IMG/VR virus record: IMGVR_UViG_2861053794_000004
Span: 1-39,474 of that record
Length of the DNA: 39,474 nucleotides
Source: a virus
Taxonomy: Duplodnaviria; Heunggongvirae; Uroviricota; Caudoviricetes
Strand: one strand, 5' to 3'
Shown here: piece after piece, positions 27,982 through 29,597 of the stretch
Position numbering within the stretch: the first letter of the stretch is position 1
Layout of the letters: each line of letters opens with the position of its first letter
Notes under the pieces: generated by a model
Seen by the model: only the letters and a program-made list of their open reading frames with translations
Database searches by the model: none
What the model was told of the DNA's origin: nothing
Made by a program: the position numbers and the translations under genes

Positions 27982-28000
27982 AAATAAATTTCCTTAAAGT

Positions 28001-28070
28001 TCACTAACTTATGATGTAGTGAGCTTTTTATATCCATAAAATGTACTATTGGTACTTTACATTAATGAAC
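28001..28070. promoter_or_regulatory. Candidate OL/pL region (degenerate operator-like palindromes)
   Basis: CACTAACTTATGATGTAGTG (28001-28020) shares the ACTTATG centre with OR sites; TGAACTTTAAGTACA (28056-28070) matches OR consensus at 11 of 15 positions. Confidence 0.3.
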
Positions 28071-28242
28071 TTTAAGTACATCATAAGCCCATAGACGAAC
28101 GGCGCGTCTTTAAACCATGCGTCGGGAGCGCGGCGGGTTCAGGATGAACGGCAATGCTGCTCATTAGCGAGAAGGCTTTTTTGCTTTTAGTCACAAAAAG
28201 CAAAGCAGCTTTTTGATATAGAAAAAGAAAAAGGAGGCTGAT

Positions 28243-28686
28243 TTGAAGAGTGCTACAGTTTACACGGCAATGAGAGTTAAGCAATATGGCGGCGTACCTT
28301 CGGTAGAGGTAAGGTGTGATGATAAAAGAACCAAAGTTGTTACTGATTGCCTTCTGCTTTTTAAAAGCATAGACGAGGTAATTTTTATTGGCGCTGAAAA
28401 TCTTCACCCTTTGATAAAAGCAGAGATGAAGCAATGTGCAATCGATGCATTGGGAGTTGGGCAAGGCAAGTCTCAGATCGAAGCAAAGCAAATGCTTACA
28501 GAGCTTGAAAGCAGCAGACGTAGACAAGCAAGCAGGGCAAGACAATTTCACGATGCGATCGCAGGATGGAGCAGAGAGCTTATGTCTTTAAATGTAGACA
28601 TACAGAGAGGAATTGATGTTCCAACAATAAGGTCAAGAATAGGTACGATCGCAGAGAACATGGAAAAGCTAAATCCAAAGAAATAA
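28243..28686 (+). CDS. Unrecognised 147-aa protein in the N/rex position (gene A)
   Basis: TTG start preceded by AAGGAGG at 28231-28237; non-hydrophobic; Arg-rich patch SSRRRQASRARQ mid-protein; followed by strong terminator. Confidence 0.6.
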   Translation: MKSATVYTAMRVKQYGGVPSVEVRCDDKRTKVVTDCLLLFKSIDEVIFIGAENLHPLIKAEMKQCAIDALGVGQGKSQIEAKQMLTELESSRRRQASRARQFHDAIAGWSRELMSLNVDIQRGIDVPTIRSRIGTIAENMEKLNPKK

Positions 28687-28688
28687 TA

Positions 28689-28710
28689 ACCCGCTAAGGC
28701 GGGTTTTTTA
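28689..28710. terminator. Bidirectional rho-independent terminator between convergent genes A and B
   Basis: ACCCGC-TAAG-GCGGGT followed by TTTTTT on plus strand and TTATTATTT on minus strand. Confidence 0.8.
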
Positions 28711-28802
28711 TTACATAAATAACCGAATTTACTACCGCAAGCCTGGCGAACGCGGCATAACATGCAGAGGACGCCAGAAAATTAAAGGTAAATCTATATC
28801 AC

Positions 28803-29297
28803 TTATTTAGAAAATGCAGATTTAGGGAACAGATAGGAGGCGTTACACCTATGGCATCTCATCCTATGGTTAGAAGGTGGTGCAAATCCTTCGTATTGAA
28901 GTATGGATTTCACAGAAGATTCATAGCATTGAGCGCAAAGATAGTGCATTGGCTGACCGGTATTTGCCGATTTTTTGAGACGATAAACCACCGTAGCAAC
29001 AGTAGGAGTATACATCTCATAGTTTTTCTTTTCCTCTTCCCACTTAGAGGCTCGATTTATCTTTTCTTCAAGCTCAATGATCTTGTCCTTAGAAATCATC
29101 AAAAGCTCATTAAGTGACATTTGCTGCTGTTGGGCATCCATGAGCTTATCGACAAGTTCGTATGTTTTTTCTTTTACTGAGTAGTCTATTTGCATTTTCT
29201 GGATTTCCTTTACTGCGCCAACAGCACTCATCAGAGCACCTCCGGCACCAGAAACTGCATCTGTAATCCTACTTATTATTCCTTTTTCATCAGACAT
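28803..29297 (-). CDS. Unrecognised 164-aa coiled-coil protein with C-terminal CxxC...CxxC zinc ribbon (gene B)
   Basis: ATG at 29297 (listed ORF begins at a GTG at 29306); coiled-coil-like middle; C-terminal CAQC...CHRC; antisense ORF 28851..29117 looks like junk. Confidence 0.6.
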
Positions 29298-29307
29298 ATA
29301 AATCACT

Positions 29308-29365
29308 CTCTTACTGTAGGGGTAAGAGGATTTTACTATTTTTCTCGCTGTAGGGGTACACGAGA
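29308..29365. repeat. Two hairpins carrying the same CTGTAGGGGTA loop sequence
   Basis: Direct repeats at 29314-29324 and 29348-29358 inside stems CTCTTAC/GTAAGAG (29308-29328) and TCTCG/CGAGA (29343-29365). Confidence 0.6.
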
Positions 29366-29507
29366 ACCACCGAGCCTGATGTGGTTAAAAGACAGGCATA
29401 CTAATAAACACTGCACTGTGTATTCATTCCAACGAGTGAATACACGGAGCAATGTCGCTCGTAACTAAACAGGAGCCGACTTGTTCTGATTATTGGAAAT
29501 CTTCTTT

Positions 29508-29533
29508 GCCCTCCAGTGTGAGGGCCTTTTTAT
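29508..29533 (+). terminator. Rho-independent terminator in the early-left leader
   Basis: GCCCTC-CAGTGT-GAGGGC followed by CTTTTTAT; a second weaker hairpin AACGC...GCGTT plus T-run at 29546-29571. Confidence 0.7.
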
Positions 29534-29597
29534 ATGCATACCAATAACGCTTCACTTGAGGCGTTTTCGTTATGCAATCAAATATAAGGAGTTACCC

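Follow-up and report, generated by a model that had tools for sequence, protein, structure and literature searches.

The early-left genes of the phage studied here lie behind a series of terminator hairpins. The first genes past these terminators are cIII and kil, followed by recT, and the repressor gene cI stands on the other side of them. A sequence-only reading of this DNA had recognised no N antiterminator in the region and had left three explanations: a non-canonical antiterminator encoded by the first open reading frame (ORF) of the interval, gene A; an RNA-based device like the put elements of phage HK022; or an early promoter pL lying downstream of the hairpins. The question was, accordingly, how RNA polymerase reaches cIII. 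The whole stretch of DNA that was analysed (39,474 nucleotides, hereafter the window) pointed to the second explanation. Judged from the sequence, the early-left operon is very probably antiterminated by an HK022-type put RNA made from pL, with no phage protein involved.

Early region and its terminators

The features of the early region are listed in Table 1. The cI gene was located on the plus strand, and cro, cII, an O-like gene and a DnaB-like gene were located on the minus strand, so the early-left operon runs along the plus strand from just past cI. The ORFs neighbouring the interval were all intact. The window was a mosaic, with P22-like podovirus virion genes in positions 1-25000 and an early region closest to that of the siphovirus HK022 in positions 25001-39474. 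The best match of the structural genes (tailspike, DNA transfer proteins and portal) was vB_EcoP-720R6.

Table 1. Features of the early region of the window, with position, strand (a dot where neither strand is assigned) and basis.
Feature	Position	Strand	Basis or remark
cII	26546-26842	-	
putR antiterminator RNA, between cro and cII	26875-26948	-	Annotated core 26939-26883; identity to O276/HK022 putR
cro	26964-27194	-	
pR	27253-27226	-	Promoter scan and O276 annotation
cI repressor, HK022 type	27274-27981	+	Pfam HTH_3 and Peptidase_S24; collinear with HK022/O276/HK75 cI annotation
oL3	28020-28034	.	HK75 annotation via ungapped alignment
oL2	28042-28057	.	HK75 annotation via ungapped alignment
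pL	28056-28091	+	-35 TTTACA 28056-28061, -10 CATCAT 28079-28084, start 28091; O276 and X16093 annotations of HK022 pL
oL1	28066-28079	.	HK75 annotation via ungapped alignment
putL antiterminator RNA, residues A3-C72, two stem-loops	28093-28162	+	Identity to HK022, O276 and HK75 putL; annotated putL 28100-28162
A/U-rich inverted repeat with U6 tract	28172-28212	+	Identical in HK022/O276, HK75 and APC_JM3.2
Gene A (147 aa), in the uncharacterised family phrog_13686	28243-28686	+	PHROG E 4e-92; AAGGAGG ribosome-binding site
Strong bidirectional intrinsic terminator	28688-28710	.	Between gene A and convergent minus-strand ORF; scan matches on both strands
N pseudogene fragment, last 30 codons of lambda-type N	28718-28810	+	Lacks a start codon, an arginine-rich motif and nutL
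hkaP-like ORF, phrog_1244	28803-29297	-	PHROG E 5e-53; HK446_037 and HK620 hkaP annotations
Hairpin pair	29307-29366	.	Just upstream of minus-strand ORF start; weak plus-strand terminator at most
tL2A intrinsic terminator	29508-29535	+	Hairpin identical to lambda/O276 tL2a and HK620 tL2A
tL2B intrinsic terminator	29546-29571	+	HK620 and HK75 annotations; scan and fold
cIII	29598-29732	+	Pfam cIII E 2e-30
kil	29717-29869	+	Pfam Lambda_Kil E 1.7e-20

The terminators were examined with a consensus scan of positions 26500-31000, which gave 14 sites compared with 3.5 ± 2.1 in shuffled sequences. Four plus-strand sites were found in the interval between cI and cIII, at 28688-28705, 29307-29329, 29508-29525 and 29546-29565, and the first, third and fourth of these were followed by a T-run. 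The hairpin at 28680-28720 had a fold energy of -13.6 kcal/mol (z -4.7), and the pair at 29500-29580 had one of -27.6 kcal/mol (z -5.2), with 0/200 shuffles in each case. In HK620 the two downstream sites carry the names tL2A and tL2B, and HK75 has both annotated as terminators. Terminators had previously been placed at 28689-28710, 29508-29533 and 29546-29571, and the scan and the folds bore out all three. The first of them had been described as a plus-strand terminator; its strength stood, but it scored on both strands and is thus bidirectional. A permissive Rfam search of positions 26000-31000 returned only a sub-threshold match to STnc370 on this same terminator, which was rejected as mere terminator resemblance.

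A further hairpin pair had been proposed at 29308-29365. A scan site was indeed present there, but the structure was weak, as the fold of 29300-29375 reached only z -1.7 with 12/200 shuffles. The pair could serve in the regulation of the minus-strand hkaP-like gene, or it could be a weak terminator on the pL strand. The hkaP-like ORF is antisense to the pL transcript, and its counterpart in HK620 is annotated as a putative superinfection exclusion protein. Each hairpin of the pair contained the 11-mer CTGTAGGGGTA (29314-29324 and 29348-29358), two copies of which occurred in 0/100 shuffles. The pair was 100% conserved in HK620, HK446 and E. coli YP3, and was absent from HK75. In addition, the non-coding stretch 29395-29507, just upstream of tL2A, was identical in HK75, HK620 and HK446 and largely so in lambda. 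It folded far better than shuffles (z -4.2), with a 13-bp hairpin at about 29417-29447, and gave no match to an Rfam family.

The pL promoter and the put elements

Operator-like palindromes at 28001-28070 had been taken to favour a pL upstream of gene A. The palindromes were the HK022 operators oL3, oL2 and oL1, and pL was found at 28056-28084, in agreement with that expectation. The same hexamer pair was independently chosen as pL by the promoter scan. The stretch 27982-28223 was 99.6% identical to the oL/pL/putL region of HK022, and the annotations of O276, HK75 (oL1-3, pL, putL and putR) and X16093 carried over to the window without gaps. The labels used from the O276 record were 'putL/putR: antiterminator RNA' and the pL and pR hexamers. 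The transcription start was set by the fit to the residue numbering of the cryo-EM study of put (PMC9378689), in which A3-G7 pairs with C15-U19 and C10 corresponds to 28100; that numbering fitted exactly with +1 at 28091.

The putL element was identical at 75/75 nt to the copies in HK022, O276 and HK75, and its RNA had 100% identity to the HK022 element that was solved on RNA polymerase by cryo-EM. Furthermore, putR was identical at 74/74 nt to the O276/HK022 copy, and the cro-cII spacer was 98.2% identical to the putR-bearing region of HK022. The position of putL at the extreme 5' end of the pL transcript, and that of putR about 270 nt downstream of the pR start, matched the placement in the previous study (PMC9378689). 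By identity, the critical residues A9, G35, U28 and U68 were all kept in putL. The -10-like NANNAT sequence of putL was AACCAT (+23 to +28, positions 28113-28118) with U28 inside it, and U68 was located at 28158. The A/U-rich inverted repeat downstream contained position ~28183, the predicted site of the pause that occurs 21 nt after stem II and is suppressed by putL (PMC9378689). An RNA-based, HK022-like read-through device had been one of the suggested explanations, and the presence of both elements at full identity argues for it.

The minimum free energy folds of putL and putR each consisted of two stem-loops. A search for put-like covariation in related phages had been recommended, and it was positive. 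Among 12 putL/putR copies from seven phages, compensatory double changes were found in 7 of the 11 consensus pairs that RNAalifold retained, to which the count is limited. The covarying pairs included the helix A3-G7/C15-U19 of the cryo-EM structure and the base of stem II; upper stem II, the site of an indel, is mis-registered in the MAFFT putL-putR alignment. The put folds were not more stable than those of shuffles (putL z 0.08, putR z 1.48), and Rfam holds no put family. The case for put therefore rests on the identity to the studied element and on the covariation. A diverged putL-like element (82% identity) was also observed after the repressor gene of Enterobacter phage CobraSix, at 1999-2073 of the locus extract. 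No putR copy was found by nhmmer in the CobraSix flank examined, and the put-like region of that phage is annotated within an opposite-strand hypothetical CDS.

The early antitermination of HK022 needs no phage protein, and put alone suffices. While still nascent, put RNA attaches to the β' zinc-binding domain at the exit channel for RNA. It then remains with the elongation complex and suppresses pausing as well as intrinsic and Rho-dependent termination, an effect that extends to terminators 10 kb or more away (PMC9378689). In the window, the early-left operon would likewise be transcribed from the HK022-type pL, with its start at 28091, and the first 72 nt of the transcript would fold as putL RNA and modify the polymerase. 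The RNA would stay bound, and the polymerase would resist pausing and both intrinsic and Rho-dependent terminators over many kilobases, with no phage protein required for the read-through. The modified polymerase would pass the terminator after gene A, the hairpin pair, tL2A and tL2B in that order, and would go on into cIII, kil and the recT recombination genes. The identical putR would serve the pR operon in the same way. The terminator after gene A is one more strong terminator in the pL path than is present in HK75. The activity of these put copies in this phage is predicted from their identity to the studied element. N would not be needed in this phage, because exact copies of the HK022 putL and putR are carried.

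The N remnant, gene A and other explanations

The N proteins of lambda, HK446, HK620, MG40 and Tbat2_3 were compared with the whole 39.5 kb window by tblastn, and one C-terminal fragment was the only match. It covered residues 78-107 of HK446 N (28718-28807, 87%, E 1.6e-13), and the same stretch is treated by PGAP as an incomplete N pseudogene in the E. coli YP3 prophage. The earlier statement that no N was recognisable was thus correct in that the window contains no working N, but a 3' fossil of the gene does remain. The small plus-strand ORFs at 28436-29732 showed no N family in Pfam, and apart from the 30-codon fossil none of them was identified as an N homolog. Moreover, tblastn with the Nun of HK75 gave nothing better than E 0.57 in the whole window, and no nun homologue was found between putL and cIII. 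The boxA consensus CGCTCTTA was absent from the early region, and its sole occurrence in the window, at 764, was at chance level. A lambda-type system, with an N-terminal arginine-rich motif and with boxA/boxB after pL and cro, was accordingly not found, and the nut positions were taken by the put elements.

The fragment of N is a scar left by recombination. C-terminal fragments of N adjoined put modules in the window, in E. coli PEC122 (2657-2740) and in phage APC_JM3.2 (~2290-2372). This arrangement suggests a recombination in which put cassettes took the place of nutL and of the 5' portion of N. The ORF directly after putL in PEC122 and APC_JM3.2 reads LKSGTVCLPEVALFAAGHRTSKQVTAR. The first ~6 codons of this ORF are common to gene A and run into the final ~21 residues of an N of the P22/HK620 type, and its PGAP name is 'antitermination N peptide'.

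Gene A occupied the slot of nun in HK022. The window diverged from HK022 at 28224, ahead of the nun promoter annotated in O276, and nun has therefore been replaced. Gene A gave no Pfam or PADLOC match. Its 15 homologues, all unnamed and located in enterobacterial prophages, form a small family. The AlphaFold2 model (pLDDT 85) showed a four-strand sheet followed by three helices, and gave no informative fold match. Residues 87-102 (ELESSRxRQASRARQF) were almost invariant in the 15 homologues and lay within a predicted 46-residue helix.

The proposal that gene A is a non-canonical protein antiterminator, replacing N by means of this conserved arginine-rich helix in the middle of the protein, has several points in its favour. 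Gene A is the first ORF past pL, the helix motif is nearly invariant, and the gene always adjoined an antitermination device, with putL directly preceding it in five backgrounds and N in the other two. A homologue directly followed putL in phiEt88, PDP110P2, YP3 and O111:NM 14614. However, in Salmonella phage MG40 and in Flyfo siphovirus Tbat2_3 the homologues were located directly downstream of a true N gene. The N genes of these two phages matched Pfam N_peptide above the cutoff, and their loci were without put. Because its homologues directly follow a true N there, gene A is not a substitute for N but an accessory early gene. In addition, the profile of gene A was unrelated to that of N (hhalign probability 0.09%), and a folded protein, of sheet and helices, was predicted. 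Gene A is also upstream of only part of what needs antitermination, the pR operon having its own putR, and in HK022 nothing beyond putL and putR is required (PMC9378689). The proposal is thus very improbable. A small door is left open by the conserved arginine-rich helix (SSRxRQASRARQF) for a role directed at RNA or at the polymerase, for example a Nun-like exclusion of competing phages or a modulation of their transcription elongation, although we consider this role unlikely.

The N pseudogene fragment might also be regarded as a sign of decay: with N lost, the terminators would block the early-left operon and the phage would be defective. The rarity of the architecture, with putL in 36 of the 5426 complete E. 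coli genomes, would fit such a decayed mosaic. However, the put elements, pL, pR and the operators were intact and identical to those of viable phage, and the intact neighbouring ORFs likewise give little sign of decay. The layout of put and gene A also recurred, both in several lineages of E. coli and in PDP110P2 and phiEt88, which are isolated phages, and a defective phage is therefore highly doubtful. Finally, a separate promoter downstream of the terminators, which would make antitermination unneeded, found no support and is hardly credible, since no sigma-70-like site was found on the plus strand at 28085-29871, the operator-controlled pL at 28056-28084 was identical to that of HK022, and the homologous tL2A/tL2B-cIII segments of HK620, HK75 and lambda are read from pL; the suggestion that pL might lie downstream of the hairpins, or of position 29533, was abandoned with it.

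Comparison with other phages

The put-based reading places the window close to the HK022-type phages. Compared with HK022, HK75 and O276, the cI, oL1-3, pL, putL, cro, putR and cII of the window were 98-100% identical. The window and these phages have in common putL at +1 to +72 and putR about 270 nt from pR, and all of them lack N and possess tL2-type terminators upstream of cIII. Unlike in HK022, nun and its own promoter were absent from the window. From 28224 onwards the window instead had gene A and the strong terminator, then the 3' fragment of a lambda-type N and the antisense hkaP-like gene. Furthermore, its virion genes were P22-like and not HK022/HK97-like.

The logic of the early region was the same as that of the N/nut system of lambda, in which a device located right after pL and again after cro lets the polymerase pass tL and tR. 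The tL2a sequence was identical in lambda and the window, and a fragment of N survives in the latter. It was different from lambda in that there was no arginine-rich N-terminus and no boxA/boxB, and a cis-acting RNA without a phage protein would take their part.

The relatives that combine put with gene A were E. coli YP3, VTB96816v and O111:NM 14614, Wanchaivirus PDP110P2 and Erwinia phage phiEt88, in which putL stood directly before the gene A homologue. The YP3 prophage was 99.6% identical to the interval over 98% of its length. Most of these relatives possessed other repressor/operator specificities, and their homology to the window started at the transcript start, 28084.

That put RNA alone can bring about processive antitermination is textbook knowledge dating from the 1990s, and a cryo-EM structure is now available. 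The mechanism is already known, and public genomes already contain the mosaic of put, gene A and N fossil. The mechanistic weight of the finding is small, as the element is identical to the studied put. Automatic annotation can make a lambdoid prophage that lacks N seem anomalous, because Rfam has no put family and the fold energy of put is unremarkable, and a search for putL and putR resolves such cases. The put elements are rare, yet they have been combined with several immunity types and several virion types.
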